DNA of 64,000 nucleotides from the NCBI GenBank assembly GCA_964588985.1, contig CAZPQW010000018.1, positions 8,442-72,441 of the forward strand, read 5' to 3'. Position numbers and translations under genes: made by a program. Source of the DNA: an uncultured Solirubrobacteraceae bacterium (GTDB lineage Bacteria; Actinomycetota; Thermoleophilia; Solirubrobacterales; Solirubrobacteraceae). Under the pieces are notes generated by a model. That model ran no database searches. It saw nothing but the letters and a program-made list of their open reading frames with translations, and had not been told where the DNA came from. Below are positions 813 through 28,138 of this stretch, piece by piece; the first letter of the stretch is position 1, and each line of letters begins with the position of its first letter.

Positions 813-837
813 TGACGGCCGCCGGCCGGAGGCATGG

Positions 838-1731
838 ATGAGCACCCCTACGACGGGCTCAACCTGCCAGGAGTGCGGCGCGGGGCGTCCTGCAGACGCG
901 AGGTTCTGCCGTCGTTGCGGCGCAGCGATCGCTGACAGCGGCGAAGCTCGCTCGACCGCTGCCGGCGCTTCGCCGCTCGGCGGATGCCCGAGCTGCCGAA
1001 CGGCTAACCCGCCAGGCACTCGCTTCTGCAGGAACTGCGGTCAATCTCTGGCGACCGCGACCGTGGCCGCGCGCGACCCCGCTCCGGCGGCCGCTTCGCC
1101 TGCTGTGCGGGCAGCATCCGCCGCGGAGCCGCCCAGATCCGCAGACGCAGGGAGGAACCGGCGGGTGATCGCGGCAGCTGCGCTGGCGCTCATGCTGGCC
1201 GTGGCCGGGGGAGCCACCGCATATCTGACCAGCAACCACCACGGCGCCCACCCGGCCACGCGTGCGGCCCACCCGTCTGCGGCCCGCAACCCGACGGCTG
1301 CTCTGGCCGCCGCGACGTCGAGCGCCGCGCCTACTTCCGGAGGTCCCGCATTCTCGGCCAGCGCCGCGCGCCGCGACATCGTTGGCCTGCTCGACACCTA
1401 TCAGAGCGCATACTCCGATCGAAGCACCGCAAGTCTGGCCCGCATCCTCTCGCCATCGGTGACGCGCCACGGACTGGCCGCCAGCGGTTGTGCCGTCTCG
1501 CACGGTCTGCAGGCCGTGCTCGGCGACTACCAGACTCAGTTCCAAGTCGGCACCGGCACCTACAGGCTGAACGGACTCTCCGAACAGACGATCGTTTTCG
1601 AGGGGACGACGGCGGCCCGCATCAGCGCGCGCTATCGAATCACCCCCGGCGGCAGCGGCTTCGTCAAATTCAAGTTCGGCGAAGCGGGCCGGGGATGGAA
1701 GATCAGCGAAATCTACGCTGCGTGCAGCTAG
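838..1731 (+). CDS. double zinc-ribbon, single-TM protein with NTF2-like extracellular C-terminus
   Basis: CQEC..FCRRCG and CPSC..FCRNCG; TM VIAAAALALMLAVAGG; ATG 838 after ggagg. Confidence 0.75.
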   Translation: MSTPTTGSTCQECGAGRPADARFCRRCGAAIADSGEARSTAAGASPLGGCPSCRTANPPGTRFCRNCGQSLATATVAARDPAPAAASPAVRAASAAEPPRSADAGRNRRVIAAAALALMLAVAGGATAYLTSNHHGAHPATRAAHPSAARNPTAALAAATSSAAPTSGGPAFSASAARRDIVGLLDTYQSAYSDRSTASLARILSPSVTRHGLAASGCAVSHGLQAVLGDYQTQFQVGTGTYRLNGLSEQTIVFEGTTAARISARYRITPGGSGFVKFKFGEAGRGWKISEIYAACS

Positions 1732-8745: not shown

Positions 8746-10620
8746 TTACTCGACCGTGACCGTCTTCGCGAGGTTGCGGGGCTGGTCCACGTTCAGGCCG
8801 CGGCGCCGGGCGATGTCATACGCGAGCACCTGCAGCGGGATCACCGCGAGCATCGGCTGCAGCATCCAGTCGACCGCCGGCACCGTCAGCACCGCGTCCG
8901 CGTGCTGGGCGACGCGCTCGTCGCCCTCGGTGGTGACCGCGATCACGTGCGCCCCGCGGGCCTGCACCTCCTGCATGTTCGACGCGACCTTCTCCAGCAC
9001 CGGCGAGTCGGTGGCCACGCACACCACGGGGGTTGAGTCGTCCAACAGCGCGATCGGGCCGTGCTTCATCTCGCCGGCCGCATATGCGTCGGTGGCTATG
9101 TAGGAGATCTCCTTCAACTTCAACGCGCCCTCCAGGGCGGCGGGCAGGCCTATGTGGCGGCCTATATATAGAAAGAAATCGCTGCCCCAGTAGCGCTCCG
9201 CGACCGGCTTCACCTGCGCCTCCACGCCACTCAGCACGTGCTCGATCGAGTGCGGCAACCGCTTGACCTCGCCCACCAGCTCGGTCAGCCGCTCGGGCGC
9301 GAGCGTGCCGCGCAGCTCCGCTAGGCGCAGGCCGAGCAGGTACATCACCGCGACCTGGCACAGGAACGTCTTCGTCGCCGCGACCCCCACCTCGAGGCCC
9401 GCGCGGGTGAACAGCACGCCGTCGGAGTCGCGTGTCGCCTGCGACCCCATCACGTTCGTCACAGCTAACACCCTCGCGCCGCGTTCGCGCGCCAGGCGCA
9501 TCGCCGCGAGCGTGTCCGCCGTCTCGCCCGACTGCGTGATCCCAATCACCAGGTCACCGGAGCCGACCACGGGGTTGCGGTAGCGGTACTCGGACGCGAC
9601 GTCCATCTCCACCGGTATGCGCGCCCACTCTTCGATCGCGTAGCGGCCGATCATGCCCGCGTGGTAGGAGGTGCCGCACGCGACGATCACGATCCGCTGC
9701 ACGTCCCGCAGGAGCGCCTCGTCGAGCGCGCCGTCCTCCCGCAGGTCCACGCCGTCGCCGCGCGCCGTGCGGTCTGACACCGCGTCCGCCACCGCGTCGG
9801 CCTGTTCGTGGATCTCCTTCAGCATGAACGTCTCGTAGCCGCCCTTCTCGGCGGTCTCCTCGTCCCAGTCGACCGTGTGCTCCGGCCGCTCCACCGGCTC
9901 GCCCGCGGCCGTCGTGATCGTCACGCCCGCGGGCGTCAGCACCACGATCTCGCCGTTTTCGACGTACTGCACGCGCCGGGTCTGCGCGAGGAAGCCGGGC
10001 ACCGCTGAAGCGATGAACTGCTCGCCGTCGCCGCGACCCACGATCAGCGGGCACTCCTTGCGCGCGCCCACCAGCACCTCCGGCTCGTCCGCGCTCATCG
10101 CCACGAATGCGTAGTGGCCCTCCAGCTGCGCGTACGCCGCGCGCACCGCGTCCGCCAGGTCGCCGTCGTAGAGGGTCGCGATCAGGTGCGCGATCACCTC
10201 CGCGTCGGTCTCTGAGGTGAACGTGCTGCCCTGCTCCAGCAGTCGCTCCTTCAGCGCCATGTAGTTCTCCACGATCCCGTTCACCACCACGTGCACGCGG
10301 TTGCCCGTGTCGTAGTGCGGATGGGCGTTCTCCTCAGTCACGCGCCCGTGGGTCGCCCAGCGCGTGTGGCCGATGCCAGTCGTCGCGACGCGCTCCGCCA
10401 CCGCCACACCGCCGCCGTTGGACGCGGCTGCCCGGTCGGCGCTGTCGAGCTTGGCCTGCAGCGCGGAGAGGTTGCCCACCGCGCGCACCGCGTCGATGTG
10501 ATCCTCGGCTATGACCGAGATGCCGGCGGAGTCATAGCCGCGGTACTCGAGCTTGGTCAACCCCGCGAGCAGCAGCTCCCGCACAGGACGCGAACCGACG
10601 TAGCCGACGATGCCGCACAC
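8746..10620 (-). CDS. glmS: glutamine--fructose-6-phosphate transaminase
   Basis: MCGIVG, EYRGYDSAG, GHTRWATHG, QSGETADT, PRNLAKTVTVE. Confidence 0.98.
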   Translation of the reverse strand: MCGIVGYVGSRPVRELLLAGLTKLEYRGYDSAGISVIAEDHIDAVRAVGNLSALQAKLDSADRAAASNGGGVAVAERVATTGIGHTRWATHGRVTEENAHPHYDTGNRVHVVVNGIVENYMALKERLLEQGSTFTSETDAEVIAHLIATLYDGDLADAVRAAYAQLEGHYAFVAMSADEPEVLVGARKECPLIVGRGDGEQFIASAVPGFLAQTRRVQYVENGEIVVLTPAGVTITTAAGEPVERPEHTVDWDEETAEKGGYETFMLKEIHEQADAVADAVSDRTARGDGVDLREDGALDEALLRDVQRIVIVACGTSYHAGMIGRYAIEEWARIPVEMDVASEYRYRNPVVGSGDLVIGITQSGETADTLAAMRLARERGARVLAVTNVMGSQATRDSDGVLFTRAGLEVGVAATKTFLCQVAVMYLLGLRLAELRGTLAPERLTELVGEVKRLPHSIEHVLSGVEAQVKPVAERYWGSDFFLYIGRHIGLPAALEGALKLKEISYIATDAYAAGEMKHGPIALLDDSTPVVCVATDSPVLEKVASNMQEVQARGAHVIAVTTEGDERVAQHADAVLTVPAVDWMLQPMLAVIPLQVLAYDIARRRGLNVDQPRNLAKTVTVE

Positions 10621-10680: not shown

Positions 10681-12003
10681 TCAGGCGAGCTCGCGCTCGA
10701 CGACCCCGACCAAGCGCATGCACACGTCCTGCGCCTCCTGCTCGGTGGGCGCCTCCACCATCACGCGCACCAGCGGCTCGGTGCCGCTGGGGCGCACGAG
10801 CACGCGTCCGCGGCCGCTGAGCTCGCGCTCGGCGTCGTCCACCGCTGCGTCGAGGCCGCCCGCGTGCTTGATCGCGTCGCGGTCGCGCACGCGCACGTTC
10901 ACCAGCCGTTGCGGGAGCTTCGTCATAGCGTCGCGCTCGCTCAGCCTGCGCCCGCCGAGCGCCTCGAGCGTCAGCAGCGCGCTCGCGATGCCGTCGCCGG
11001 TGCGGTTGAAGCCCATCTCGATGATGTGCCCCGACTGCTCGCCTCCGAGCATCCAGCCGCGTGCGCGCAGCTCCTCGAGCACGTAGCGGTCGCCCACGTT
11101 CGCGGTCGCCACCTCCACGCCCTCGCGTTTCATCGCCGCGTGAAAGCCGTAGTTGGTCATCACCGTCACCGCCACCCCGTTGCCCGCGAGGCGCCCGCTG
11201 TCGCGCAGGTGAAGCGTCGCGAGCGCCATCAGCTCGTCGCCGTCGACCACCTCGCCGCGGTCGTCCACCGCGAGCACGCGGTCGCCGTCGCCGTCGAACG
11301 CGAAGCCGATCGAGTGCCCACCCGCCACGACCTGCTCGGCGAGGCTCTCGATGTGCGTGGAGCCGCAGCCGGCGTTGATGTTGCGCCCGTCGGGCTCGTC
11401 CGCGATCGCCGTCACCTTCGCGCCGAGGCGCCTGAAGATCTCCGGCGCGACCTGGAACGTCGCGCCGTTGGCGCAGTCCAGCAGCACGTCCACCCCGTGG
11501 AGGTCGAGGCCCGCGAAGCGTGTGTGCAGCTCGCGCAGGTAGTCCTCGGGCGCTCCGCGCAGCTCGCGCACGTGCCCGATCTTCGACGCCGTGTCCGGCC
11601 GGGCGGGGCTCTCCAGCTCCCGCTCGATCGCGAGCTCCGTCTCGTCGGTGAGCTTGTAGCCGTCGCCGCCGAAGAACTTGATTCCGTTGTCCTCGTAGGG
11701 GTTGTGCGACGCGGACAGCACCACCGCGAGGTCGAAGCCGTAGCGGCCGATCAGCAGCGGCGCGGCGGGCGTGGGCAGCACGCCTCCGAGCAGCGCGTCG
11801 CCGCCCGCCGCGCTCACGCCCGCCGCGAGCGCGGCCTGCAGCATCTCTCCCGACTGGCGCGTGTCGCGCACGATCAGCACGCGCGCGTGCTCCACGCCGG
11901 TCTGGTGCGTCGCCGCACGGCCGAGGCCCAGCGCGAGCTCGGCCGACAGGAACTCACCGGCGACGCCTCGAACGCCGTCGGTCCCGAACAACTTGCGGGT
12001 CAT
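10681..12003 (-). CDS. glmM: phosphoglucosamine mutase
   Basis: FGTDGVRG, SASHNP, DGDGDR, GEQSGH, RPSGTEP. Confidence 0.97.
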   Translation of the reverse strand: MTRKLFGTDGVRGVAGEFLSAELALGLGRAATHQTGVEHARVLIVRDTRQSGEMLQAALAAGVSAAGGDALLGGVLPTPAAPLLIGRYGFDLAVVLSASHNPYEDNGIKFFGGDGYKLTDETELAIERELESPARPDTASKIGHVRELRGAPEDYLRELHTRFAGLDLHGVDVLLDCANGATFQVAPEIFRRLGAKVTAIADEPDGRNINAGCGSTHIESLAEQVVAGGHSIGFAFDGDGDRVLAVDDRGEVVDGDELMALATLHLRDSGRLAGNGVAVTVMTNYGFHAAMKREGVEVATANVGDRYVLEELRARGWMLGGEQSGHIIEMGFNRTGDGIASALLTLEALGGRRLSERDAMTKLPQRLVNVRVRDRDAIKHAGGLDAAVDDAERELSGRGRVLVRPSGTEPLVRVMVEAPTEQEAQDVCMRLVGVVERELA

Positions 12004-12031: not shown

Positions 12032-12889
12032 CTAGCGCTTCGAGAACTGCGGCTTCTTGCGCGCCTTCTTCAGACCGGCCTTCTTGCGCTCCTTGGCGCG
12101 CGAGTCGCGCGTCAGGAAGCCGCGGCGCTTGAGCTCGCCACGCAGGTTCGGGTCTGCCTCCAGCAGCGCACGCGACACGCCGTGGCGCAGCGCGCCGGCC
12201 TGTGCGGAGATGCCGCCGCCGTGGAGTCGCGCGACGACGTCCATCTTCTCCTGGAAGCCGACCGTCTCGAGCGGCTGACGGATGTTGCGCTGGAGGGTGA
12301 TGCGCGGGAAGTGCTGCTCCAGCGTGCGCCCGTTGATCGTGTAGGTGCCGGTGCCGGGGCGCAGCGTCACGCGGGCGATCGCCGTCTTGCGCTTGCCCGT
12401 CGCGCGGTAGCGCGCGCCGGAGGCGAGGTCGATCGCGGCGGTTGAGATCGGTTCGGAGAGCGGTTCGTCCTGCTCCTCCTCGGCGTCCGAGTCCGTGTCC
12501 TCCGACTCCTCGCCGATCGCGTAGGGGTCGATGTACTCGTCGGCGCTGCTGCTGCTGCTGCGGCCGAGGGGGTCGACGCCCTCGGGGACGATGTCCACTT
12601 CGAGATGGGCTCCGGGCACCGCGGGCTTCTCGCGCGGAGCGGGCTCCTCTTCCTCGTCCTCCTCCACCGCGGCCTCGACCGCGACCTTGTCTTCGGCCTC
12701 CTCGAGCGCCTCCAGCGGTGCGTCCTCGATCGAGCCCGCGATCTCCTCGGCGTCGGCTGTGGGGACCGCGTGGCCCTCGCCTGCCGGCTGGTGCTCGGCG
12801 CTCGTCTCGGCTGGCTGCTCCGCGCTTGCCTCGGCGGCGGGCTGCTCCTCGGGGGTCTCCCCCGCTGCGGTTGTCTCGTCGTCTGCCAT
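12032..12889 (-). CDS. rpsI: 30S ribosomal protein S9 with ~160-aa acidic N-terminal extension
   Basis: [40 protein letters not shown]. Confidence 0.97.
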
Positions 12890-13335
12890 CAGGCCTCTAT
12901 CTCAAGGGGTTGGGGGTTCTGAGCGACATGCGGGTGCTCTGGCCCGGCGTAGATCTTCAGCTTGGTGATCTGCTTGCGCGCGAGGCGATTGCGGGGCATC
13001 ATGCCTTTGACCGCGAGGCGGATGATCTCCTCGGGGCGTCGGGCGAGCATCTCCTCGAACGTGCGCGAGCGCAGGCCGCCCGGGTAGCCGGAGTGGCGGT
13101 AGTAGCGCTTGTCGGCGCGCTTGTTGCCGCTGACGTGGATCTTCTCCGCGTTTACGACCACGACGAAGTCGCCGGTGTCGATGTGCGGCGTGTACTCGGG
13201 CTTGCGCTTGCCGCGCAGCACGTCCGCGATCTGTGTCGCGAGGCGTCCGAGCGTCTTGCCGTTCGCGTCGACGATGAGCCAGTTGCGCTCACGGTCGGTC
13301 GGCTTCGCGACGTATGTCTTCTGGGAGGGGGCCAT
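12889..13335 (-). CDS. rplM: 50S ribosomal protein L13
   Basis: [32 protein letters not shown]. Confidence 0.98.
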
Positions 13336-13406
13336 AACGTGAAAAAGGCCACGCGAGAGCGCGCGGCGCTGGATGCATCATAGGCGAAGTTGCGTTCGCT
13401 CGCGGA

Positions 13407-15023
13407 CTACTCCCACTCGATCGTGCCGGGCGGCTTCGACGTGATGTCGAGAACCACCCGGTTGACCTCGCGCAGCTCGTTGATCATGCGCGAGGCGATC
13501 GTCTCGAGCAGGTCGTACGGGAGTCTCGCCCAGTCGGCTGTCATGGCGTCGTCGCTGGTGACCGCGCGCACGACGACCACGTAGCCGTACGTGCGCTCGT
13601 CGCCCTGCACGCCGACGGTGCGCACGTCGGGGAGCACGCAGAAGGACTGCCACAGCTCGCGGTAGAGCCCCGCCTTGCGGATCTCCTCCTGGAGGATGTG
13701 GTCGGCCTCGCGCAGCACGTCGAGGCGCTCCTTGGTCGCTTCGCCGCCGACGACGCGGATCGCGAGGCCCGGCCCGGGGAAGGGCTGGCGCCAGACGAGC
13801 CGTTCGGGCAGACCCAGCTCGGCCCCGACGGCGCGCACCTCGTCCTTGAACAGGGCGCGAAGCGGCTCGACGAGCTCGAACTGGAGGTCGTCGGGCAGGC
13901 CGCCGACGTTGTGGTGGGACTTGATCGTCGCCGCGCCGGTGCCGCCGCCGGACTCGATCACGTCGGAGTAGAGCGTGCCCTGGACGAGGAACGCGGCGCT
14001 GTCCCCGCCGTCGGCGCCGACGAGCTTCTCGGCCTCCTCCTCGAACACGCGGATGAACTCCGCGCCGATCGCTTTGCGCTTCGCCTCGGGCTCGGTGACG
14101 CCCTTGAGCTTGTCGAGGAAGCGCGTCTCGGCGTCGACCGCGACGAGCGGCACCTTGAACGTGTCGCGGAAGGTCTTGACGACCTGTTCTCCCTCGTCCT
14201 TGCGCATCAGGCCGTGGTCGACGAACACGCACGTGAGCTGCTCTCCGACGGCGCGGTGCACGAGCAGCGCGGCCACCGAGGAGTCGACGCCGCCGGAGAG
14301 CCCGCAGATGACGTTGCCGTCCCCCACCTGTTCGCGGATGCGGCGGATCTGTTCCTCGACGATCGACGCCGCCGACCACGTCGGCTCGCAGCCGCACACC
14401 TCGGTGAGGAAGCGCGTGAGGATCTCCTGCCCGTAGGGGGTGTGGACGACCTCGGGGTGGAACTGAATGCCGTAGATCGAGCGCTCGGTGTCCTCCACCG
14501 CGGCGACGGGCGAGCTGGTGGAGGAGGCGAGCGCGGTGAAGCCGGGGGGCGCCTCGTAGACGGTGTCGCGGTGGGACATCCAGCAGGTCTGCTCGCGCGG
14601 CATGCCCTTGAGCAGCGTGCCCGTGTCGGACACGTGCAGGTCGGAGCGCCCGAACTCCCCCACCTCCGCCTGCTCGACGCGCCCGCCGAGCGAGTGGACG
14701 AGCAGCTGCATGCCGTAGCAGATGCCCATCACCGGGACGCCCAGCTCGAGCAGGCCGAGATCGAGCGGCGGCGCGCCGTCGGCGTACACCGATGCGGGGC
14801 CGCCGGAGAGGATGATCCCGCGCGGTTTGCGCCGAGCGACCTCCTCCAGCGGGACGTGGTGCGGCAGCAGCTCGCTGAACACGCCGCAGTCGCGGACCCT
14901 GCGGGCGATCAGCTGCGAGTACTGACCGCCGTAGTCGAGGACGATTATCTCTTCGGTTGCCGCGGGCGCGATGCTCGGTGGCTCGGCGACCGCCTCAGAC
15001 GCCGTGACAGCCGAACTAGTCAT
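13407..15023 (-). CDS. guaA: GMP synthase (glutamine-hydrolysing)
   Basis: [37 protein letters not shown]. Confidence 0.98.
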
Positions 15024-16209
15024 TGACGAGCTGTGCGACCTTCCCGTTCGTGGCGCCCATGCCGACGCCCTGGTCGCGCTGCAGCGCCTTGCCCTCGGTC
15101 TGCAGGGCGGGCGCGACGACTACCTCGGCGCGGTTGAACTCGGCGAGGTCCTTGTGTCCGCAGGTGGCCATCGAGGTGCGCAGGCCGCCGAACAGGTTGA
15201 ACGTGCCGTCGTTCTCGCGCGCGGGACCGGTGAGGATCTCCTCGAGCGTGCCGTTCTGCGTGGTCGCGACGCGTGCGCCGCGCGGGAGCGTGGGATGGAA
15301 CGTGGCCATGCCCCAGTGGAAGCCCCGTCCGGGGGCCTCGTAGGCGCGCGCGAGCGGGGAGCCGATCATCACTGCGTCGGCGCCGAGCGCGATCGCCTTG
15401 GAGACGTCGCCGCCGTTGCGCATGCCGCCGTCGGCGATCACCTGGCTGTACTCGCCGGTCTCGAGCATGTGCGTCGAGCGGGCGTGGGCCACGTCGGCGA
15501 TCGCTGTCGCCTGCGGCACTCCGATCCCGAGCACTCCGCGCGTGGTGCACGCCGCGCCGGGGCCGACCCCGACGAGCACGCCGGCGGCGCCGGTGCGCAT
15601 CAGGTGCAGACCCGTGTGGTAGGACGCGCAGCCGCCGACGACGACGGGCACGTCGAGCGACGGGATGAACTCCTTCAGGTTGAGCGGCTCGGAGACGGTC
15701 GAGACGTGTTCGCCGGAGACGACGGTGCCCTGGATGACGAGCACGTCGAGGCCCGCCTCCAGCGCGATCTCGTGATAGGCGAGCACGCGCTGCGGCGTGA
15801 GCGACGCGGCGACGACGACCTTCTGTTCCTTGATCTCGCGGATGCGCTGGGCGATCAGCTCGGGCTTGACGGGCTCGGCGTAGATCTCCTGCATCTCGCG
15901 CGTGGCGAGGTCCTTGGGCAGGTGGGAGATGCGCTCGAGCTGCTCCTCGGCGTCCTCGTAGCGGGTGAAGATCCCCTCGAGGTTGAGCACCGCGAGGCCG
16001 CCCAGCCGCCCGACGATGCCGGCGGTCTCGGGGGATACGACGCCGTCCATCGCGGAGGCGAGCATCGGCAGGTCGAACTGGTAGGGCCCGAGCTTCCAGG
16101 AGATGTCGATGTCGTCGGGGTCGCGCGTGCGCCGGGAAGGAACTATCGCGATGTCGTCGAACCCGTATGCACGGCGAGCTTTCTTGCCGCGGCCGATTTC
16201 TATCTCCAT
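15016..16209 (-). CDS. GuaB3-family IMP dehydrogenase-related protein
   Basis: [39 protein letters not shown]; no CBS domains. Confidence 0.92.
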
Positions 16210-16328
16210 TGCCGGATCCTCTCAGTTGCCGCGGACGAGAAAACCCCGCGCGAAGCGGGGCCAAAAGAGGGTTGGCGGGGCGCCTGAAGAGCCTTGTAGG
16301 TGACCGCTGCCAAGTGAAGACGAGCATA
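16210..16328 (-). promoter_or_regulatory. guaB3 promoter (extended -10 TGc-TATGCT) and structured 5' leader with an intrinsic terminator; candidate attenuator/riboswitch
   Basis: -10 at 16328-16323; hairpin CCCCGC-UUCGC-GCGGGG-UUUUCU at 16260-16238, upstream of SD GAGGA and ATG 16209. Confidence 0.55.
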
Positions 16329-16374
16329 GCAATCGTCACACCGGCCCTATTGCCCTTGGATATGCTCGATCGCT

Positions 16375-18663
16375 ATGGGCGACGCCGCGAGCACGCGCTA
16401 TCAACCGCATGAGATCGAGGCCCGCCGCCAGGCCGCGTGGCGCGAGCGCGACGCGTTCAGGACGCCGCCGCTGAGCGAGGAGCAGCCGCACCTCTACATC
16501 AAGCCCTCGGCGCCGTTCACGTCGGGCAACGTGCACATCGGGCACGTGCGCAGCTACTCGATCGGAGACGCGTACGCGCGTTTTCGCCGCGCGCGCGGCG
16601 AGGCGGTGCTGTTCGCGTTCGGCTTCGACGCGTTCGGCCTGCCGGCGGAGCTCGGCGCGATCGCCGGCGGGGAGTCCCCCAGCGAGTGGGTCAACCGCTG
16701 CGCGGAGCACATGACGGGACAGCTGGACAGGCTGGGCTTCTCGTTCGACTGGGAGCGCTCGTTCCTGAGCTCCGACGCGAACATGTACCGCTGGTCGCAG
16801 TGGCTGTTCCTGGTGCTGCTGGAGGCGGGCCTGATCTACCACGGCAGCGGCAACGTCGACTGGTGCGACAACTGCGAAACGACTTTGGCGTCGATCCAGG
16901 TCGAGGCGGGCGGCACGTGCTGGCGCTGTCATGGACCGGTCAGGTTGATCGAGCTGCCGCAGTGGTATCTGCGCATTAGCGCCTATCTGCAGGAGAACGA
17001 TGCTCGTTTGCAAGAGCGCGCGGACAGCGGGATCTGGGACGAGGTGTCGCTGGCGTCCCAGCAGATCGTGTTGGGACGGGTCGACGGCGTGGAGGTGGAG
17101 ATGCGCGCCACCGACTCCACGGGCGACGTGCTGACGGTGTTCACGCCCTACGGCGACGCGGTGTCGGAGGCGCGCTTCGTGCTGCTCTCCGCGCGCCATC
17201 CCGACGTCGAGAGCTGGGCATCGGACCCGGCGGTGCTCGAGCAGCTGGAGCAGCTGCGCGCGGGCGGCTGGGAGCGCAGCGCGCGCGAGGCGGAGACGAT
17301 CCCGGTGATCGACACCGGGCGTACGGTCGCGGGTCCGGACGGCGTGGCGCTGCCGGTGCTGGTCTCGCCTGTAGTGGACTCGCGCTTCGGGCCGACGGCG
17401 GTGCTGGGCGTGCCCTCGCGCGACCGTACCGACGAGGTGCTCGCGGGGCGGCTGGGGATCGAGGTGCCGGAGGACGAGGCTGACGAGGCTGCGCGGGGCG
17501 CCGGAGCGAGCGATGGCGTCGGCCCCTCCCCCACGGCCCAAGCCGCGGTGCGCTACCGCGCGTTCGACTTTGTGGTCTCGCGCCAGCGCTCGTGGGGCAC
17601 GCCGATCCCGATCGTGTACTGCGACTCGTGCGGCACGGTGCCGGTGCCGCGCGATCAGCTGCCGGTGCTGCTGCCGCTGGACATCCACCCGACGGGGACT
17701 GGCAACCCGCTGGCGGAGATGGAGGAGTTCGTGAACACGACGTGCCCGACGTGCGGCGGGCCGGCGCGACGTGAGACGGACACGCTGGACTGCCACTTCG
17801 ACGCGCTGTGGCTGTGGGTTCCCGCGTGCGTTCCGCCCGAGAATCGCGAGGACACGTTGGAGGAGATATTCGCGCTGGCGGACCTGCGCCACTGGCTGCC
17901 GTCGGAGCGCCTGGTGGCGGGCTCGGACAGCGGCAACTTCGTGTTCGACCAGCGGACGGTGACGAAGGCGCTGCGCGACATCGGCCCGCTGTCGTTCCTC
18001 GAGGATGGCGAGCCGTTCGCGGGTTGCCTGTTCCACGAGATGGTGATCAGCGAGGGGCGCAAGATGAGCAAGCACCTCGGCAACGTGGTCGACCCGGACG
18101 AGCTGATCGCGCGCTACGGCGCGGACACGGTGCGTCTGGCCGTTCTCTACGCCGCGCGCCCCCAGCGGTCGTTGAACTGGAGCGACTCGGCGGTGCTGCG
18201 CTGCCACAGGTTCCTGACGCAGGTGTGGGAGTACTCGCACGCGCGGATCGCGCGCGCCGCCGCCGTGGACCCCGAGGTCGCCGCGGCGGATACGGCCGTG
18301 GGCGAGGACGGCGAGCCGGTGAGAGACAACACGGAGCACTTCAGGGCGCAGCTGTCGAAGTGGTGCGCGAACGGCGTGGAGAAGATCACCGAGGACATGG
18401 AGGCGCTGGAGATGCACAGCGCGGTGCGCAACGTGATGCGCCTGTTCGACCGCATCAAGGACTTCGAGAAGCGAGTGCTCGCAAGACAGGACGAGCTGAG
18501 CCGCGCGAACCTCGACGCGCTGCTCGACGCGCTCGGCGTGCTCGCCCAAACCCTCGGCCCGTTCGCCCCGCACATGGCCGAGGAGCTGTGGATGACACTG
18601 GGAAACACGGAGCACAACACACAGACGCCGTGGCCAGGCGTATCGTCTCAGGTACTCGCATGA
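16375..18663 (+). CDS. leucyl-tRNA synthetase paralog (class Ia), amino-acid pocket remodelled, C-terminal domain absent
   Basis: HIGH, FDAFGLPAE, SRQRSWGTPIP, KMSKHLGN, GADTVRL, PFAPHMAEELW. Confidence 0.9.
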   Translation: MGDAASTRYQPHEIEARRQAAWRERDAFRTPPLSEEQPHLYIKPSAPFTSGNVHIGHVRSYSIGDAYARFRRARGEAVLFAFGFDAFGLPAELGAIAGGESPSEWVNRCAEHMTGQLDRLGFSFDWERSFLSSDANMYRWSQWLFLVLLEAGLIYHGSGNVDWCDNCETTLASIQVEAGGTCWRCHGPVRLIELPQWYLRISAYLQENDARLQERADSGIWDEVSLASQQIVLGRVDGVEVEMRATDSTGDVLTVFTPYGDAVSEARFVLLSARHPDVESWASDPAVLEQLEQLRAGGWERSAREAETIPVIDTGRTVAGPDGVALPVLVSPVVDSRFGPTAVLGVPSRDRTDEVLAGRLGIEVPEDEADEAARGAGASDGVGPSPTAQAAVRYRAFDFVVSRQRSWGTPIPIVYCDSCGTVPVPRDQLPVLLPLDIHPTGTGNPLAEMEEFVNTTCPTCGGPARRETDTLDCHFDALWLWVPACVPPENREDTLEEIFALADLRHWLPSERLVAGSDSGNFVFDQRTVTKALRDIGPLSFLEDGEPFAGCLFHEMVISEGRKMSKHLGNVVDPDELIARYGADTVRLAVLYAARPQRSLNWSDSAVLRCHRFLTQVWEYSHARIARAAAVDPEVAAADTAVGEDGEPVRDNTEHFRAQLSKWCANGVEKITEDMEALEMHSAVRNVMRLFDRIKDFEKRVLARQDELSRANLDALLDALGVLAQTLGPFAPHMAEELWMTLGNTEHNTQTPWPGVSSQVLA

Positions 18664-19988
18664 GTCTTCAGACCGCAAAGAGCCCCTCGAAGCAGCGGAC
18701 GCGCTCGTGCGCGACCGGCCTGGCGTGCCACCGCTGCGACAACCACTACGCCCTCGAGGACACGGTGTTCTCGTGCCCGGACTGCGGCAAGGGCCTCGAC
18801 GTGGTCTACGACTACGAGCTGGCGGCGAGCCACTTCAGGGACTTCCCAAGCTCGGAACGCCCGCAGAACATCTGGCACTTCGAGGAGCTGCTGCCGATCG
18901 TGGACGCGGCGGCACAGGCGCGCGTGGGTCAGTTCTCCGGCTACACGCCGCTGATCCGCGCGGATCGGCTGGGCGCGGAGCTTGGGCTGAACAACCTGTA
19001 CCTGAAGGACGACTCGAGCAACCGCCCGAGCCTCTCCTACAAGGACCGCGTGGTGTCGATGTCGATTGCGCGCCTGTTGGAGCGCGGCAAGACGGAGATC
19101 GGCTGCGTGTCGACCGGCAACGTGGGCACCGCGGTGGCGTCGCTCGCGGCGAAGGCGGGCGTGGACGCGTACGTGTTCTACCCCAACGCGCTGGAGGACA
19201 TGAAGGCGCGGGCGTGCATGGCGCTCGGCGCGAAGGTGTGCCAGGTGGAGGGCAACTACGACGAAGCGAACCGCCGCTGCCGCGAAATCGCGGAAGCGAC
19301 GGGCATGGACTTCGCGAACATCACGCTGCGCCCGTTCTACGCGGAGGGCGCGAAGACAGCGGCGTTCGAGATCGTGGAGCAGCTCGGCTGGAACTCGCCA
19401 GACCACATCATCACGGCGGCCGCCGGCGGCACGCTTTCGTCGCGCCTACACAAGGGCCTCGACGAGCTGCAGCTGCTGGGCCTGTCGGAGACGGACGGCA
19501 CGCGCATCCACATCGCCCAGCCGAGCGGCTGCAACCCGATCGCGACGGCGATCCTGGCCGAGGAGGCGGAGGTCCACCCGGTGACGCCGGAGACGGCGGC
19601 GCACTCGCTGGCGATCGGCGCCCCCGGCGACGGCTACTTGGTGATCGACGCGGTGCGCAAACGCGGCGGCACGGGCGGGTTCGCGAGCGACCCGGAGATC
19701 TTCGCGGGCATCGACCTGCTGGCGGCGACCGAGGGTCTGTTGACGGAGCCCGCGGGCGGCACGACGATCGCGGTGCTTGAGAAGCTCGCGGCGGTCGGTC
19801 GCTTCGCCCCCGACGACACGGTGGTGGCGATCATCACGGGCAACGGGCTGAAGACGCTGTACGACCACCCGCAGAAGCCGTGGCCGGCGAAGGTGGACTG
19901 CGAGCTGGACGCGATGATGGCGGCGCTCGAGGAGCTCAAGAGCGGCGGCTCGCTGATCGACAGCGCTCGCGAGCAACTGCACCCGTAG
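18660..19988 (+). CDS. threonine-synthase-like fold-type II PLP enzyme
   Basis: ATGA overlap with the LeuRS-paralog stop; CHRC..CPDC zinc ribbon, SYKDR, STGN, YAEGAKT, TEPAGG, ITGNGLK. Confidence 0.9.
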   Translation: MSLQTAKSPSKQRTRSCATGLACHRCDNHYALEDTVFSCPDCGKGLDVVYDYELAASHFRDFPSSERPQNIWHFEELLPIVDAAAQARVGQFSGYTPLIRADRLGAELGLNNLYLKDDSSNRPSLSYKDRVVSMSIARLLERGKTEIGCVSTGNVGTAVASLAAKAGVDAYVFYPNALEDMKARACMALGAKVCQVEGNYDEANRRCREIAEATGMDFANITLRPFYAEGAKTAAFEIVEQLGWNSPDHIITAAAGGTLSSRLHKGLDELQLLGLSETDGTRIHIAQPSGCNPIATAILAEEAEVHPVTPETAAHSLAIGAPGDGYLVIDAVRKRGGTGGFASDPEIFAGIDLLAATEGLLTEPAGGTTIAVLEKLAAVGRFAPDDTVVAIITGNGLKTLYDHPQKPWPAKVDCELDAMMAALEELKSGGSLIDSAREQLHP

Positions 19989-20008
19989 GGAACGGCCGGA
20001 GGCTCGAG

Positions 20009-21223
20009 CTGCAGGGGGCACGGCAATCGTGGCGGGCGGTCGGGGCGTATGCGCTCGCGGCGGCCGCGAGCCAGATGCTGTGGCTGACGTTCGCTCCGAT
20101 CACGACCGCGAGCGCGCACCACTTCCACGTCTCCGAAGCGACCGTGGGGTGGCTGTCGGAGGTGTTCCCGCTGGTGTACGTGCTGCTGGCGATCCCCGCG
20201 GGGATGGCGCTCGACCGCTGGTTCCGTCCGGCGTTGATCGCGGGCGCGACGCTGACGGCGCTCGGCGGGCTGGTGCGCCTCGGTGGGGATGGGTTCGGCG
20301 TGGCGTTGGCGGGCCAGGTGCTCGTGGCGGTGGGCCAGCCATTCGTGCTGAACGCGATCACGAAGCTCGCGGGCGAGTACCTGCCGGCGGAGAAACGCCC
20401 GGAGGGGATCTCCTACGGCTCGGCGGGCATCTTCGGCGGGATGCTCCTCGGGCTCGGGCTGGGTCCCGTGTTGGGCAGCTCCGGCAACCTGCACACGCTG
20501 CTGTTGGTCAACGCCGTCTTCGCGAGCGTGGCGCTGGTGGCGCTCGCCGCGGCTCTGCGCGCGCCTGGGATCGGCGGCGAGCACGAGGACACGCTGGAGC
20601 CGAGCGGCCTGCGTGCGGTGTGGAACGACCGCCTGATCCGCAACGTCGCGGGCGTGTCGTTCCTCGGCTTCGGCGTGTTCGTGGCGGTGACGACGTGGCT
20701 TCAGGCGCTGCTCAGCCACTCGGGCGTGTCCTCCGACACCGCCGGCGGGCTGCTCGTGGGCATGGTCGTGGTGGGGATCGTAGGCTCGGCGGTGGTGCCG
20801 GCGGCGGTCGCGAGACGCGGACAGACCTTTGGGCTGATGCGCGTCTCGGCGCTCGGCGCGTCGTTCGCGTGCCTGATGCTCGCGACCCTGGACTGGCTCC
20901 CCGGCTTCGCGGTGGCGGTGGCGCTGATCGGCTTCCTGCTGATCACGAGCCTGCCGGTGATGCTCGAGCTGACCGAGCGGCGGGCGGGCGTGAACGGCGG
21001 CAGCGCGACGGCGCTGATGTGGATGGCCGGCCAGGGCGGCGGCATCGTGATCGCGGTGATCGTGCAGGTGGTGGTCCACCACCCCACCGTCGCGTTCGTG
21101 CTGATGGCGGTGGCCGCGGCGGGCGCGCTGCCTTTGATCGACGCGGCGTCGCGGGTTGCGGAGGCTGAGGATCTGGGCTTGGCGCAGGCCGATGAGGCGA
21201 TCACGCTACGCGTCGGCGCCTAG
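20009..21223 (+). CDS. MFS transporter
   Basis: About 12 hydrophobic helices; motif-A-like GMALDRWFR. Start uncertain: in-frame CTG 20009 sits 6 nt after GGAGG. Confidence 0.85.
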   Translation: MQGARQSWRAVGAYALAAAASQMLWLTFAPITTASAHHFHVSEATVGWLSEVFPLVYVLLAIPAGMALDRWFRPALIAGATLTALGGLVRLGGDGFGVALAGQVLVAVGQPFVLNAITKLAGEYLPAEKRPEGISYGSAGIFGGMLLGLGLGPVLGSSGNLHTLLLVNAVFASVALVALAAALRAPGIGGEHEDTLEPSGLRAVWNDRLIRNVAGVSFLGFGVFVAVTTWLQALLSHSGVSSDTAGGLLVGMVVVGIVGSAVVPAAVARRGQTFGLMRVSALGASFACLMLATLDWLPGFAVAVALIGFLLITSLPVMLELTERRAGVNGGSATALMWMAGQGGGIVIAVIVQVVVHHPTVAFVLMAVAAAGALPLIDAASRVAEAEDLGLAQADEAITLRVGA

Positions 21224-21606: not shown

Positions 21607-22110
21607 TCAGTCCTCGCAGATGTCGGCGGTCTGGGCAGCGGTGATGCGGACGATCTCGCGCGGATCGAGCAGCACCGAGTGGCGGTGGTCGCCGGCTGGG
21701 CAGAGGATCTGCTCGTGCCCCGTGAGCGCGCTGTCGATCACCTCGGCCGCTGGGACCATCGGGCCGAAGGGCGGGACGGCGCCGACTTCCAGCAGCGGGA
21801 AGTCCCGGGCGATCTCGTCCTCGCTCGCGAGCCGCAGCTGTCGCGTGGCGCCGAGCAGATCGCGGAGCTTGTGCAGATCGAGGCGGTCGGAGGCGGGTAT
21901 CGCGGCGATCACGTAGATGTCGCCGTCGTGCAGCACGATCGTCTTCGCGACCCGGCCGGGCGGAAGATGCGCGGCGCGCGCCTCAGCAGCTGCGCTCGTC
22001 GTCCGTGCGTGCTCGACGAGCTCATACGACGTACCCGTACCCTGCAGAAACCCGGTGATCGCGTCGACGCGAGTGGTCTCGACCGCGCCCGACGCTCCGT
22101 CATTCAGCAT
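21607..22110 (-). CDS. YbaK/ProX-family aminoacyl-tRNA deacylase
   Basis: VAKTIVL (conserved Lys), LASEDE, GAVPPFG, AGDH. Confidence 0.88.
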   Translation of the reverse strand: MLNDGASGAVETTRVDAITGFLQGTGTSYELVEHARTTSAAAEARAAHLPPGRVAKTIVLHDGDIYVIAAIPASDRLDLHKLRDLLGATRQLRLASEDEIARDFPLLEVGAVPPFGPMVPAAEVIDSALTGHEQILCPAGDHRHSVLLDPREIVRITAAQTADICED

Positions 22111-22298: not shown

Positions 22299-22351
22299 AT
22301 AGAAAAACCCCGCCGTAGCGGGGCTTTTCCTTAGCGGGTCGATAAGCCGGA
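22299..22351 (-). repeat. direct repeat copy 1 (attR-like): rnpB 3' end plus terminator
   Basis: 52/53 nt identical to 23838-23890; the only difference is 22316 t vs 23855 g, in the hairpin loop. Confidence 0.95.
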
Positions 22352-22456
22352 GGTTTGGGACTCGGTTAGGACGCGCCGCCGACCTGCTTCAGGAGGACGG
22401 CCGGTATGCCGATTGGCTGGATAGCCTCCACAGAAGGCGTTACGCTCTGATTGACG

Positions 22457-22648
22457 ATGACTTTGCGGATAGAACATGTTGACGTTCAGGTGCTTCTCGA
22501 TGAAGAGGAGAGGGATCGCCGCGCCGATGAGGTGGCGCTGCGATCTGGACGTAAGACGCACGAGCAGCTCAAGCGCGAAAACGAGGTCTTTGCGCTTCCG
22601 CCGAGTCGCATTCGGATCAACCTCGACTCAGCGCACTCTCTTTCCTGA
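22457..22648 (+). CDS. small protein, possible antitoxin/partner of the downstream nucleotidyltransferase
   Basis: 63-aa ORF ending 23 nt before the NTase-like gene. Confidence 0.55.
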   Translation: MTLRIEHVDVQVLLDEEERDRRADEVALRSGRKTHEQLKRENEVFALPPSRIRINLDSAHSLS

Positions 22649-22671
22649 GCGACGATTCCAGAGCCGCACAC

Positions 22672-23477
22672 GTGGCTGAGGAGCATCAGAGCGAGGCCGA
22701 GCTGCCTCCGCTGAAGATCGACGAAACCGAGCGCATCATCGCTCGCCTTGAGCAAGTCGTCCGCGATCGGCGAGTCGTCCTTGTCGGTGGACAGGCAGTC
22801 GCCATTTGGGCATCGAAGCTCGCAGATCGGATAGCGGACACGCTCGTCGAGGCAGTGGCGAGTCGAGATATCGATCTTCTCGGCAACTCCTCGGACCTCC
22901 GACAGTCAGCCGAACTACTCGGCGGACGTATCCGCGTAGCTACTTGGGAGGACCGCACACCCTTACCGGCGTCGCCATCTTCCTCGACAACGAAGGTCAC
23001 GAGCGCCGCCTCGATGTCTTGGCAAGCATCTACGGAATGAACTCCGACGACATCAGACAGACAGCCATCGAGGCAGAGTTGCTCGTGGAAGATGATCGGC
23101 TCGTTCATGTCTGGGTGATGCACCCAGAGCGCTGCATGGAGAGCCGCGTCCACAACAGCGCTCTCTCGAACAAGCAAACGGACCTCGCCTGGCGCCAGCT
23201 CCGAGCCTCCATCCTCTGCGCGCGTGCGTTCAGCCAACTACTACTCGATGAGCGCGGCGAGGCCGCGGTCCGCGACGTTCTGAAGCTCAACGAGCCCATC
23301 TTCCGTTTCGCGCAGCAAGACCGCTGCTCGGCGCTCGCGTCCGACAGAGGGATCGATGCTTTCGACGCCGTGCTCGATGACGAGCGGCTGCCCGATCAGT
23401 TCAGGACAGTCCGGCTGCCCCAGATGCAGGACAGGATTCTGACCGTGCGCCAACAACAACGCGACCGCACGTTGTGA
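22672..23477 (+). pseudogene. Pol-beta-superfamily nucleotidyltransferase-like gene with a 1-nt frameshift near 22963
   Basis: Frame A: VVLVGGQAVAIW..SRDIDLLG..EDRTP. Frame B continues TGVAIF..RRLDVL..VMHPERCMESRVHN. Confidence 0.7.
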
Positions 23478-23837
23478 ACACCACCCCGATGCCAGGGCAT
23501 CCTGGCGGGCATCTGTTCGTCGACGGCGGGAGGGGCCCGCTTGGCACGGCGCCGCCATCAACTCGGCGCAACGTAGGGACGCCACGACGATCGCAGAGTG
23601 CGCACCAGCAGATCCCCGGATGCCTCCTACTCAGCGCACCCAAGGCTCCATCGGAGCGATAGCGCCGATACCGACCGGAAGCAGGCTGCGGGCGACCGGT
23701 GCTCCTGCTAGAACTTGCGTCGCGGTGTGGAGCGCTGCCGGCCAGAGGTCGGGTGCCCGCGCCGAGCGATCCCATAGAAATCGCCGTCGTCATCCGGTTC
23801 CAGCGCTTAGCGTGTTTAGTCTCCAGCTACTGAACAC

Positions 23838-23890
23838 ATAGAAAAACCCCGCCGGAGCGGGGCTTTTCCTTAGCGGGTCGATAAGCCGGA
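23838..23890 (-). repeat. direct repeat copy 2 (attL-like), within and after the intact rnpB
   Basis: Matches copy 1. Confidence 0.95.
23840..23868 (-). terminator. rnpB intrinsic terminator
   Basis: AAAAGCCCCGC-UCCG-GCGGGG-UUUUUCU on the minus strand. Confidence 0.85.
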
Positions 23891-24197
23891 TCCTGTCGTT
23901 GAGCAGCCATCCATCTGAGCGGCCTACCTGGACCTCGGCGGGCAGCCTGCAAACGGTCCCGTTTGGCCTTGCATCGAGTGGGGTTTGCCCAGCCGCCGCG
24001 TCACCGCGACGCTGGTGCGCTCTTACCGCACCATTTCACCCTTGCCGGCCCGCCGTTCACGTGGGACGGCGGACGTAGGCGGTTTGTTTCTGTGGCACTT
24101 TCCCGCGGGTTTCCCCGGGTCGATACCTCGACCACCCTGCCCTGTGATGTCCGGACTTTCCTCGAAGGCTTGCGCCTCCGCGGCTGCCTGACCTGCA
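23872..24197 (-). ncRNA. rnpB: RNase P RNA (bacterial type A)
   Basis: GAGGAAAGTCCGG, AGTGCCACAGAAA, GGTGAAATGGTGCGGTAAGAGCGCACC, GGCAAACCCC..GCAAG, ACAGGATCCGGCTTA; P1 GCAGGUC/GACCCGC. Confidence 0.97.
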
Positions 24198-24277
24198 CGG
24201 TCAACGTAGCGCGCGAGAGGCGCTCTGTGAAGGGGTGGGTTCGCACGCCCGACCGCGGGCAGCGAGGCGGCTGGAGC

Positions 24278-24955: not shown

Positions 24956-25046
24956 CACTGTAGCGACGGTCGTGGACGGATGCAACATCTGGCACCCGCA
25001 GCCCACCCGCTGCCAGCCTCATCCCGAGGCTATACTCGCCCACTCT

Positions 25047-25132
<86 letters not shown>

Positions 25133-25169
25133 TTCGCTCCGTGTACCACCTGCTTGGTACACTGCGTAG

Positions 25170-25412
25170 ATGGCTTCGACGTCTCGTGTTCAGGTCACGC
25201 TCGACGCGGAGCTCGCCGCTGCGGTGGAGGAGTTCGGGGGGGCTGAGCCGCGGTCTCGTGCCGTGCGAGATCTGGCCGTCCGTGGTGCTGAGGCAATGCG
25301 CGCGGAGCGCGCGGGCAGACGCGACGCACAGGAGCATTTGATCCGGATTGCGGCGGGCGAGGACGACGGCTACGACTTCGCCGTCTCAGAGCAGCTTCAT
25401 GCCGCCCGCTGA
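25170..25412 (+). CDS. VapB-like ribbon-helix-helix antitoxin
   Basis: RVQVTLD..RSRAVRDLA; overlaps the PIN gene. Confidence 0.75.
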   Translation: MASTSRVQVTLDAELAAAVEEFGGAEPRSRAVRDLAVRGAEAMRAERAGRRDAQEHLIRIAAGEDDGYDFAVSEQLHAAR

Positions 25413-25830
25413 GCCTTACGGCTCCGGCGGACTGCTCGTATTCGATACCTCGGCCTGGAACCGTCAGCGAGATCCGCAGGTGCTCGCACGATGGCTCGCC
25501 ACTGCAAGCGCCAACCTGCTTGCTGTTTGTCCCGTAGTGGCGCTGGAGTTGCTCGCGAGCGCCCGTGACGAGCAGAAGTTCGCCGACCTCGATCGCACCT
25601 TCACGTCGCTACCTGCGGCCCCCGTCACACGTAGTGCCTGCGCAGCGGCCCTCAGCGTCTCACGCGAGCTGCGCGGCGAGCGGCGCATACCTGCAGCCGA
25701 CTACCTGATAGCGGCTGCCGCGGCTGGACGCGGCGCCGGAGTACTCCACTACGACCATCACTTCGACCCACTCTGCCGCGCACTCGGCATCGAGAGCGTG
25801 TGGGTCGCAGAGCCCGGCTCCGTCGACTGA
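25399..25830 (+). CDS. VapC-like PIN-domain toxin
   Basis: VFDTSAW, LELL, ADYLIAA, HYDHHF. Confidence 0.88.
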   Translation: MPPAEPYGSGGLLVFDTSAWNRQRDPQVLARWLATASANLLAVCPVVALELLASARDEQKFADLDRTFTSLPAAPVTRSACAAALSVSRELRGERRIPAADYLIAAAAAGRGAGVLHYDHHFDPLCRALGIESVWVAEPGSVD

Positions 25831-27351: not shown

Positions 27352-27870
27352 TCAGCGGACTACTGCCGAGACCTTTCGGCGAAACGCGACAGGATCGATC
27401 GCCGGGTAGCGGAAGAGCTCCGGCTCGATTGCGTCGTAGAGCTCGTGCAGCCTGGATGGCTCTACGAGCCCGGACTCCATCATGTGCCGGACATCATCGA
27501 GGTCTTGGCTGAACCCACGCTCGATCTTGGACAACGCTTGCGAGTAGAAGTCGAAGTGATGGATATCGACGTTGCCCTCCCGGAATACAAACGGGCTGCG
27601 ATCCCGCCAGCCCGGCAGCTCGGGGATGAAGTCCGGCGGCGAGGCCAGCTCGATGTTCACGCCAAGATCCTCCTTCAATGCGGGAAGCTCTCGTAGCAGT
27701 GAGTCGATGTCCGGTTCGAGCCTCATATCGACATCTACGGTTGAGCCCCGCCAGCCTTCGAGCACTGCCGTGGCGCCTCCCGTCAAGTAGATTCTCGTCG
27801 GCGCGCTTGCCACCCGTCCGAGGCGGCGAGCCAGCTCCCGCAGCCGAGTCTCGTCAACCGGCGGACGCAT
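27352..27870 (-). CDS. DUF6036-like nucleotidyltransferase
   Basis: YLTGGATAVLEGWRGSTVDVD..QALSKIERG..DLDD. Confidence 0.8.
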   Translation of the reverse strand: MRPPVDETRLRELARRLGRVASAPTRIYLTGGATAVLEGWRGSTVDVDMRLEPDIDSLLRELPALKEDLGVNIELASPPDFIPELPGWRDRSPFVFREGNVDIHHFDFYSQALSKIERGFSQDLDDVRHMMESGLVEPSRLHELYDAIEPELFRYPAIDPVAFRRKVSAVVR

Positions 27871-28138
27871 GCTCGGCCGCCCGTGCAAAGCTCACCACAC
27901 GAGCGACCAGCGCGTTGTAGCGACTGTGAGGCCCCTCATCGGACTCGGTGAGCAGTTCATAGAGACGATGGGATGGCTGCGCTCCCCCACCCTGCGGCAC
28001 ATCGATCCCGATCGCACGCAGCCGAGGCGCAGCCATGGCGACGAGCAATGCCGACTCGGTCTCCCTGCCCGCCGCGAGATCATCGAGGCCCACACTTACG
28101 ATCTCGTATCCAGGCAGGTCATCTCGAACTTCCGACAC
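27854..28138 (-). CDS. small helical partner of the DUF6036-like NTase
   Basis: LPGYEIV..GLDDL..HSRYNALVARVVSF; overlaps the downstream gene. Confidence 0.7.
   Translation of the reverse strand: MSEVRDDLPGYEIVSVGLDDLAAGRETESALLVAMAAPRLRAIGIDVPQGGGAQPSHRLYELLTESDEGPHSRYNALVARVVSFARAAEHASAG

Follow-up and report, generated by a model that had tools for sequence, protein, structure and literature searches.

That mobile DNA integrates at the 3' ends of tRNA and tmRNA genes is textbook knowledge, and island-finding software relies on this rule. Such tDNA islands have been catalogued by Islander (PMC4383910). In these islands foreign DNA separates an intact stable-RNA gene from a displaced 3' fragment of that gene, the tail carried by the element restores the gene, a tyrosine integrase lies at one end, and tandem arrays and decayed remnants occur. 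A target outside this rule is ffs, the 4.5S RNA gene of Enterococcus faecalis, in which the phage phiEf11 integrates, as confirmed by lysogenisation and PCR (PMC12540744). There, in 2025, ffs is introduced as a novel target among non-coding RNAs, with only tRNA/tmRNA and csRNA given as precedents (PMC12540744). Here we describe a window of 64,000 nucleotides from an uncultured Solirubrobacteraceae bacterium (contig CAZPQW010000018.1) in which rnpB, the gene for RNase P RNA, is followed by an islet of about 1.49 kb and then by a displaced copy of its own 3' end. Relatives carry larger versions of this arrangement with an integrase of their own, and this comparison therefore indicates that rnpB serves mobile DNA as a docking site, much like tRNA genes. 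The island geometry is already known; new here are the rnpB target, an identity block that includes the terminator and so extends 28 nt beyond the gene, and a short Xer-like integrase that adjoins the displaced fragment. With phiEf11 the rnpB elements share the use of a non-tRNA stable RNA gene as attB, whereas the gene, the host phylum and the integrase differ, and the rnpB case is known from comparison alone. Our literature searches returned no report of rnpB as an attachment site, although large island catalogues (TIGER/Islander target lists) may contain cases.

The window contains a full-length bacterial class A RNase P RNA gene on the minus strand (23866-24199; Rfam RF00010, 215.8 bits against a gathering score of 100, model positions 1-367). 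A repeat search returned a single direct repeat of 53 nt at 22299-22351 and 23838-23890, with 52/53 positions identical (98%) and a start-to-start distance of 1539, as an earlier sequence-only reading had claimed. Read on the rnpB strand, each copy opens with TCCGGCTTATCG, the last 25 nt of the gene, and continues into a terminator with a G+C-rich stem of 12-13 bp, a 4-nt loop and a T run ending in CTAT. The attL-like copy (23838-23890, minus strand) comprises the end of rnpB itself and the 28-nt terminator, whose stem-loop spans ~23842-23867; the attR-like copy (22299-22351, minus strand) is an orphan, a displaced 25-nt rnpB tail with its terminator hairpin. Their sole mismatch (22316 versus 23855) lies inside the 4-nt hairpin loop. 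The earlier estimate of about 19 nt of rnpB in the repeat was right as to tail and terminator and short as to length: the Rfam boundary gives 25 nt, of which the 19-mer is the part up to GCT. This 19-mer has exactly two matches in the 64-kb window with up to three mismatches allowed, against 0.03 expected, and none of 100 shuffles gave two. The description of the interval as about 1.49 kb of accessory DNA, with one copy completing the gene and the other left as an orphan, also held; its GC is 0.58-0.63, compared with ~0.70 in both flanks. Given the 53-nt repeat, the count of the 19-mer against expectation and the GC contrast, the repeat around the islet is real and well beyond chance. An intact rnpB and a displaced 3' fragment in direct orientation are what tDNA-type islands show at their stable-RNA targets, except that the target in an Islander-style definition is a tRNA or tmRNA gene and here is rnpB.

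The absence of an integrase was confirmed as well. Integrase, resolvase and transposase domains were found in none of the 64 open reading frames (ORFs) of the window scanned with Pfam (14 + 50), and tblastn of the relatives' integrase against the 64-kb window gave no match at E ≤ 1e-4. Species-representative genomes were scanned with the exact 18-mer of the rnpB tail, which yielded 117 loci (L numbers below). On 58 contigs of this set rnpB is 89-98% identical to that of the window, and in two more contigs of this group nothing but an orphan or a cut gene is present. All related contigs belong to Solirubrobacterales/Solirubrobacteraceae; the window's own genome lies outside the set. In nearly all relatives lexA is directly upstream of rnpB, and downstream of rnpB similarity to the window returns only at the 3' end of thrC. 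The end of rnpB and the stop codon of thrC are 97 bp apart in L002, which appears to be in effect an empty site, the unoccupied state being found in this locus and in no close relative (>97% rnpB identity). The same distance is 381 bp in L025, 759 bp in L071 and 3.9 kb in the window, extends up to 8423 bp across 30 loci and amounts to ~84 kb on the L080/L097 contig as judged from contig positions and synteny; nine further contigs have no thrC within 10 kb. The proposed comparison of the rnpB 3' flank in relatives thus showed an interval that is not common to them, an empty site in L002 and larger elements that bear an integrase.

Duplicated rnpB 3' ends recur in the lineage when searched for: an extra exact rnpB tail is present in 6 of ~60 related genomes, and three of these are three-copy arrays. 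On one contig (L006/L034/L083) rnpB is accompanied by orphans at +1.8 kb and ~+13.5 kb, and a second (L097/L080) carries rnpB and orphans 78 kb and 80.7 kb away. In L032 an orphan at +3.8 kb is followed by a degenerate third copy at +8.8 kb; in L003 the contig ends 4.6 kb beyond the orphan; L033 holds a 223-nt repeat; and L045 is an orphan remote from its gene. Rfam identified a full rnpB in L002, L006, L020, L032 and L033 and a copy in L097 that is cut only by the locus end, and found no rnpB within loci L003 and L080. An integrase-less islet of 1.8 kb lies between rnpB tails in L006, beside an integrase-bearing element. Many of these relatives are metagenome-assembled and short repeats can mislead assemblers, so that an assembly or binning artefact of metagenome-derived sequence has to be considered for the duplication itself. 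However, the same architecture is found in several independent assemblies, including megabase contigs and whole-chromosome records, the flanks of the window are collinear with relatives on both sides, and the two copies in the window differ at one base, which makes an artefact extremely unlikely.

The L045 orphan (OY969911.1, ~761646) is located 1.74 Mb from the rnpB of that genome (L004) and on the opposite strand. It is a canonical element end with a 21-nt rnpB tail and no terminator, and it adjoins a gene with an Xre/MbcA-type antitoxin domain. DNA similar to that of L045, with a RES-domain gene, lies directly after rnpB in L059. This orphan may represent an inversion or a relocated end.

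Four contigs (L003, L080, L083 and L032) carry the gene of an Xer-like tyrosine integrase, or its N-terminal part, directly beside the orphan, on the opposite strand and starting 27-57 nt from it. The gene is full length in L003 (315 aa; Phage_integrase and Phage_int_SAM_1, E 2e-36) and in L080 (308 aa, 80% identical to the L003 protein; the same two domains, E 6.7e-36), with start codons 27 and 56 nt from the core, respectively. Beside the L083 orphan the N-terminal 88 aa are present up to the locus end, and beside the L032 orphan the N-terminal half only. Further traces are a C-terminal fragment inside the L006 element, an 80-aa fragment in the L080 islet and fragments in L020. An integrase between gene and displaced fragment, as in an Islander-style definition, is therefore found in L003 and L080 and in part in L032, L083 and L006, whereas the window copy, having none, falls outside that definition. 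The earlier inference that a putative rnpB-specific integrase family may exist in this lineage is thus supported by tyrosine integrases beside orphan tails, at loci chosen by the rnpB tail.

XerC and XerD act at dif, and the CTX phage and integron integrases use Xer-type or folded sites. The integrase of the relatives resembles XerC/XerD in domain make-up, length and catalytic motifs. The 308-315-aa proteins are spanned by PF00589 and PF02899, a catalytic and a SAM-like core-binding domain, and an arm-binding domain is absent. XerC and XerD are also the best NCBIfam models, but the scores of the L003/L080-type integrase (237.5 and 227.8 bits against a cutoff of 335.15 for XerC; 218.5 and 213.4 against 329.6 for XerD) stay below both equivalog cutoffs, the level at which orthology would be assigned. 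The best PDB match is E. coli XerD (1a0p, E 1.6e-36), in which GLRRAEL, HTLRH, LGH and RYT are aligned, which we take to be the catalytic Arg, His-x-x-Arg, His/Trp and Tyr motifs. Unlike known Xer proteins, to which it is ~34-36% identical, the integrase is encoded by the element, is truncated in several loci and lies beside rnpB tails and not dif. Its clade comprises 965 public proteins at E ≤ 1e-40, and the best 120 of the 965 are all 69-100% identical; the sources name them only 'XerD', 'XerC' or 'tyrosine-type recombinase/integrase'. Phage and plasmid collections contained no close relative of the integrase (best matches XerC/XerD at ≤36% identity) and no record covering ≥80% of a 71-nt att query, the matches to which were generic terminator hairpins only.

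The ends of the elements are conserved on both sides. About 70 nt between integrase and core are shared by L003, L080, L006 and L083 and end in GTGTYTAGTCT, followed by CCGGC of the core. On the other side, the DNA after the rnpB terminator is conserved in the window, L097, L006, L003 and L108 and, more distantly, in L015, L020 and L032; it opens with an inverted imperfect copy of the integrase-side end plus the rnpB tail. Elements of this kind, here termed type 1, are bounded by imperfect inverted repeats of ~32 nt. When the integrase-side arm with core was aligned to the reverse complement of the rnpB-side arm, with gaps (indels) allowed, L003, L006 and L080/L097 scored 14, 15 and 12, values that 0, 0 and 1 of 1000 shuffles attained; the two controls, the empty site of L002 and the rnpB gene itself, gave 6. 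In L003 another element end follows the orphan, and arm, core, terminator and arm therefore occur there in natural order; this stretch folds as a single hairpin of ~105 nt. From the inverted-repeat scores and this fold we infer an attP in the form of a long, imperfect palindrome with the terminator loop at its centre, a putative hairpin that recalls the folded sites of the CTX phage and of integron attC. Where att copies within the arrays differ, the variable positions are compatible with a crossover in either of two places, the CCGGCT end and the terminator loop. Strand exchange could take place at the CCGGCT end of the identity block, by likeness to tRNA targets; it could equally take place in the terminator loop, where arms of 11 bp and a short spacer resemble a simple recombinase site.

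As for cargo, large proteins with RHS repeats, one of them with DUF6531, are encoded in the integrase-bearing elements of L003 (oriented 3-1640) and L006 (oriented 12455-16438). Genes for SSB, a subtilase and a protein with sigma-70 region 4 lie at the L080 end of the 78-kb element. In the 11.7-kb L006 element, Rfam matched group II intron D1-D4 (RF02005, 119.4 bits; original coordinates 624-846, minus strand) towards the far end and close to the integrase fragment.

The window islet combines parts that are found at two places of the L097/L080 contig. Its portion at 22351-23489, which includes the junction to the orphan and two ORFs that we label islA and islB, matches the second islet of L080 at 97.1% identity over 1140 nt; that islet sits between two orphans and still holds an integrase fragment. 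Over 180 nt that include the terminator, the rnpB-side end of the window islet (23687-23865) shares 85.6% identity with the sequence following rnpB in L097, the near end of the 78-kb element on the same contig as the L080 islet; its identity to L006 is 82.9% over 146 nt. The conserved rnpB-side element end, or P' arm, was delimited by alignment to relatives at 23687-23837 (minus strand) and holds, at ~23811-23833, the inverted imperfect copy of the element's other end and the rnpB tail. The arm folds into extended hairpins, and ~360 nt of the islet adjoining rnpB are non-coding. Between the two blastn matches lie ~200 nt (23490-23686) that match no fetched locus and whose ORFs have no family match and no other support; this stretch is likely a deletion or fusion junction between two element parts. 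At the opposite end, the junction of cargo and orphan (22352-22450, ending in ...AGTCCCAAACCT) matches only the second orphan of L080. The inverted-repeat test was negative at this junction (score 6, reached by 541 of 1000 shuffles), and the islet thus lacks the integrase-side arm of the family and keeps only the rnpB-side element end. Apart from the known arm, a blastn-short search of the window and L080 islets for a degenerate internal att site or an integrase remnant gave chance-level matches only. Directly after the orphan, the bases TCCCGACACGCC are similar to the last part of the element-end motif and hint at a trace of an older remnant.

We also considered the rnpB-side arm of 150-180 nt as a structured RNA. 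The covariation term of RNAalifold on six sequences was unfavourable (+1.31), most pairs were invariant and Rfam returned nothing, and for these reasons no structured RNA is claimed.

Taken together, the islet is probably the decayed remnant of at least one site-specific integrative element using the rnpB 3' end and terminator as attachment site. In the circular form of such an element, attP would consist of the integrase-side arm, the last 19-25 nt of rnpB, the terminator and the rnpB-side arm. The Xer-like tyrosine recombinase of the element (~310 aa) would recombine attP with the chromosomal rnpB tail, whereupon the tail and terminator brought by the element would complete rnpB and the host's own tail would be displaced to the far end as the orphan. 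Repeated integration would give rise to tandem arrays, which deletions would erode. In the window, an array like that of L097/L080 would have lost its interior by deletion, so that the rnpB-side arm of one element became fused to the distal cargo of another; this is the simplest reading of the islet, with the deletion itself deduced. What we infer in this scheme is the circular intermediate, the action of the integrase on the rnpB site, the point at which strands are exchanged and the internal deletion. The core DNA of the window organism and of the L080/L097 organism is ~91% identical, and since the identity of the cargo (97%) exceeds this value, the comparison points to a transfer of the cargo after the two lineages had split.

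The sequence-only reading had left a choice between a remnant and an islet mobilised in trans. In the latter case the islet would be a non-autonomous mini-element that is still mobile and is excised and re-integrated by an integrase encoded elsewhere in the genome, for which the two 53-nt sites would suffice. The recent transfer suggested by the cargo would suit a mobile unit of this kind, as would the state of both 53-nt copies, intact but for one loop base, and the occurrence of further islets flanked by rnpB tails and devoid of an integrase, for example the 1.8-kb islet of L006. Moreover, Xer-type recombinases usually need only a core site, and the integrase found here has such a domain make-up without an arm-binding domain. 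On the other hand, the conserved integrase-side arm and the inverted repeat are missing from the islet, its cargo gene islB is a pseudogene, the mismatch lies in the terminator loop, one candidate region of strand exchange, and no integrase was found within 64 kb. We therefore regard in-trans mobility as unlikely; the loss of the integrase-side end and the frameshift in islB fit a remnant better, and this half of the earlier alternative is the one we retain.

The pseudogene call rests on comparison with L080. In the window, islB occupies 22672-23477 (plus strand) in two frames, 22672-23040 and 22806-23477, whereas the L080 copy is a single frame of 268 aa. The cargo DNAs are identical at 1022 of 1050 positions with one 1-nt gap near window position 22962, and window islB is accordingly a pseudogene through a 1-nt deletion. 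Directly upstream, islA (22451-22648, plus strand) is a reading frame of 65 aa with 97% amino-acid identity to its L080 copy and, by position only, a candidate partner or antitoxin of islB. The islet ORFs have no match in Pfam, NCBIfam or PADLOC, a PDB profile search with islB gave no match at E ≤ 1, and the function of islB is derived only from its fold. The intact protein has 523 homologs, none with a name, and a motif G-G-Q-A...S-x-D-x-D (G39 G40 Q41 A42 ... S64 D66 D68) is invariant in 27 homologs. The AlphaFold2 model of intact islB (mean pLDDT 87.5) has its best Foldseek PDB matches in the nucleotidyltransferase-fold proteins MenT3/TglT, MenT1, ANT(2'')-Ia and JHP933 (E 5e-5 to 1e-3, probability 1.0), with modest TM-scores of 0.34-0.43 normalised to the query. 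islB thus shows the nucleotidyltransferase fold and the G-x...D-x-D active-site motif of MenT/AbiEii-like toxin-antitoxin (TA) systems. The predicted fold, the G-G...D-x-D motif, the small upstream gene and the location on mobile DNA are reminiscent of MenAT/AbiEii pairs; the lack of a sequence-family match, the modest TM-scores and the broken islB of the window set it apart. From fold and gene order only, islA-islB may be read as a TA-like pair.

Several observations weigh against the reading of the islet as a remnant of integrase-driven insertion. The junction of cargo and orphan in the window is not the canonical end of the family, and the deletion model consequently needs either a breakpoint that chanced on the core boundary or a second element type. 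No close relative has the exact flanks of the window minus the islet, the rnpB of L002 being only 89% identical. The genome of the window itself is absent from the collection, in which the best rnpB match is 98.2%, and neither an excised circle nor an empty site nor an integrase was observed for it. The association of integrase and rnpB applies to loci chosen by the rnpB tail and is in this sense ascertained; the clade is large (965 proteins at E ≤ 1e-40), and its members elsewhere in the genomes are outside the view of loci picked in this way. A tyrosine or serine recombinase domain was found in none of 145 ORFs from 35 other loci, and much of the rnpB-thrC variability is thus not linked to an integrase; the intervals of these loci hold many genes of metal homeostasis and sugar metabolism and, in L074, three transposases. 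Finally, the rnpB fragments of L033 and L020 are much longer (190 nt and ~95 nt), and what adjoins them is a secreted-protein gene and no integrase.

These last duplications fit a different process, such as homologous insertion of the Campbell type. The L033 repeat (oriented 9834-10053 and 11000-11222) is 223 nt long and 93.7% identical, consists of the 3' 190 nt of rnpB plus the terminator, and flanks a single secreted-protein gene (~280-305 aa, no family match) with no integrase. The same gene abuts a partial rnpB in L020 (oriented 14712-15900) and follows rnpB without a second copy in L063. Next to the long fragments of L033 and L020, its 305-aa product was examined as a possible recombinase; since it carries a signal peptide and matches no family, it was treated as cargo. 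For the window, the corresponding alternative is a repeat made without any site-specific recombinase, either by Campbell-type insertion of DNA that carried an rnpB tail or by local duplication and subsequent insertion. Tail and terminator are nearly invariant across the lineage, and homology for such an event would therefore have been available, but 53 nt is short for RecA-dependent exchange. In addition, the same repeat boundaries, between T and CCGGC at one end and after CTAT at the other, recur in independent loci with different cargo, and integrase genes and conserved inverted-repeat arms are found exactly at those boundaries. Homologous insertion accounts better for L033 and L020 than for the 53-nt class, for which we consider it very improbable, and site-specific integration remains our preferred explanation of the window islet.

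The rnpB tail includes the 3' strand of helix P1 of the ribozyme. Among 42 loci, the 5' strand of P1 (window ~24185-24199) reads GCAGGTC in most and also GCGGGTC, GCGGGCC or GTGGGTC, and the 3' strand is GACCCGC in all 42, loci that had been selected by the exact 3' 18-mer. As a result, most rnpB genes including that of the window have an uncompensated A.C or C.A mismatch in P1. The constancy of the 3' strand may be an ascertainment bias from this selection, or it could arise because the tail is repeatedly replaced by element copies. A bolder version of the latter idea, which by analogy with the CTX phage and integron attC would have recombination proceed through a folded hairpin and the tails brought by elements account for the constant 3' and the drifting 5' strand of P1, strikes us as doubtful at best, and single-strand recombination at rnpB sites is pure conjecture. 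Still, the question is raised whether an essential ribozyme tolerates a P1 strand supplied by mobile DNA.

Use of rnpB would extend the rule of integration in tRNA and tmRNA genes to another stable RNA gene that is single-copy and essential, and rnpB islands would form a class that tDNA-based finders miss. The compact pair of integrase (~310 aa) and site (~100 bp or less) is a possible genetic tool for Actinomycetota. The feature in the window is itself a dead remnant; its interest lies in the element family that it reveals in a poorly studied soil lineage, with an abundant integrase clade.

The rest of the window is ordinary chromosome with leuS, thrC, guaA, guaB, rplM, rpsI, glmS, glmM, lexA and others. 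Between the orphan and thrC lie a YbaK-like tRNA-editing gene (21607-22110) and an MFS transporter gene (19880-21223). The former is common to no relative and the latter only to L040, and neither is conserved in most relatives. The only tRNA gene of the window, tRNA-Leu(GAG) (25046-25133), is not involved in the islet. In the region 25046-25830 its immediate downstream neighbours are a small ORF that weakly matches NikR-like ribbon-helix-helix proteins and a PIN-domain gene, a pair that looks like a VapBC-type module. We examined tRNA-Leu and this pair as a second islet and rejected it, as no repeat of the tRNA 3' end was present within 4 kb. A DUF6036 nucleotidyltransferase gene and an overlapping upstream ORF of 94 aa (27352-28138, minus strand) form a second two-gene module of the nucleotidyltransferase type within 5 kb of the islet.

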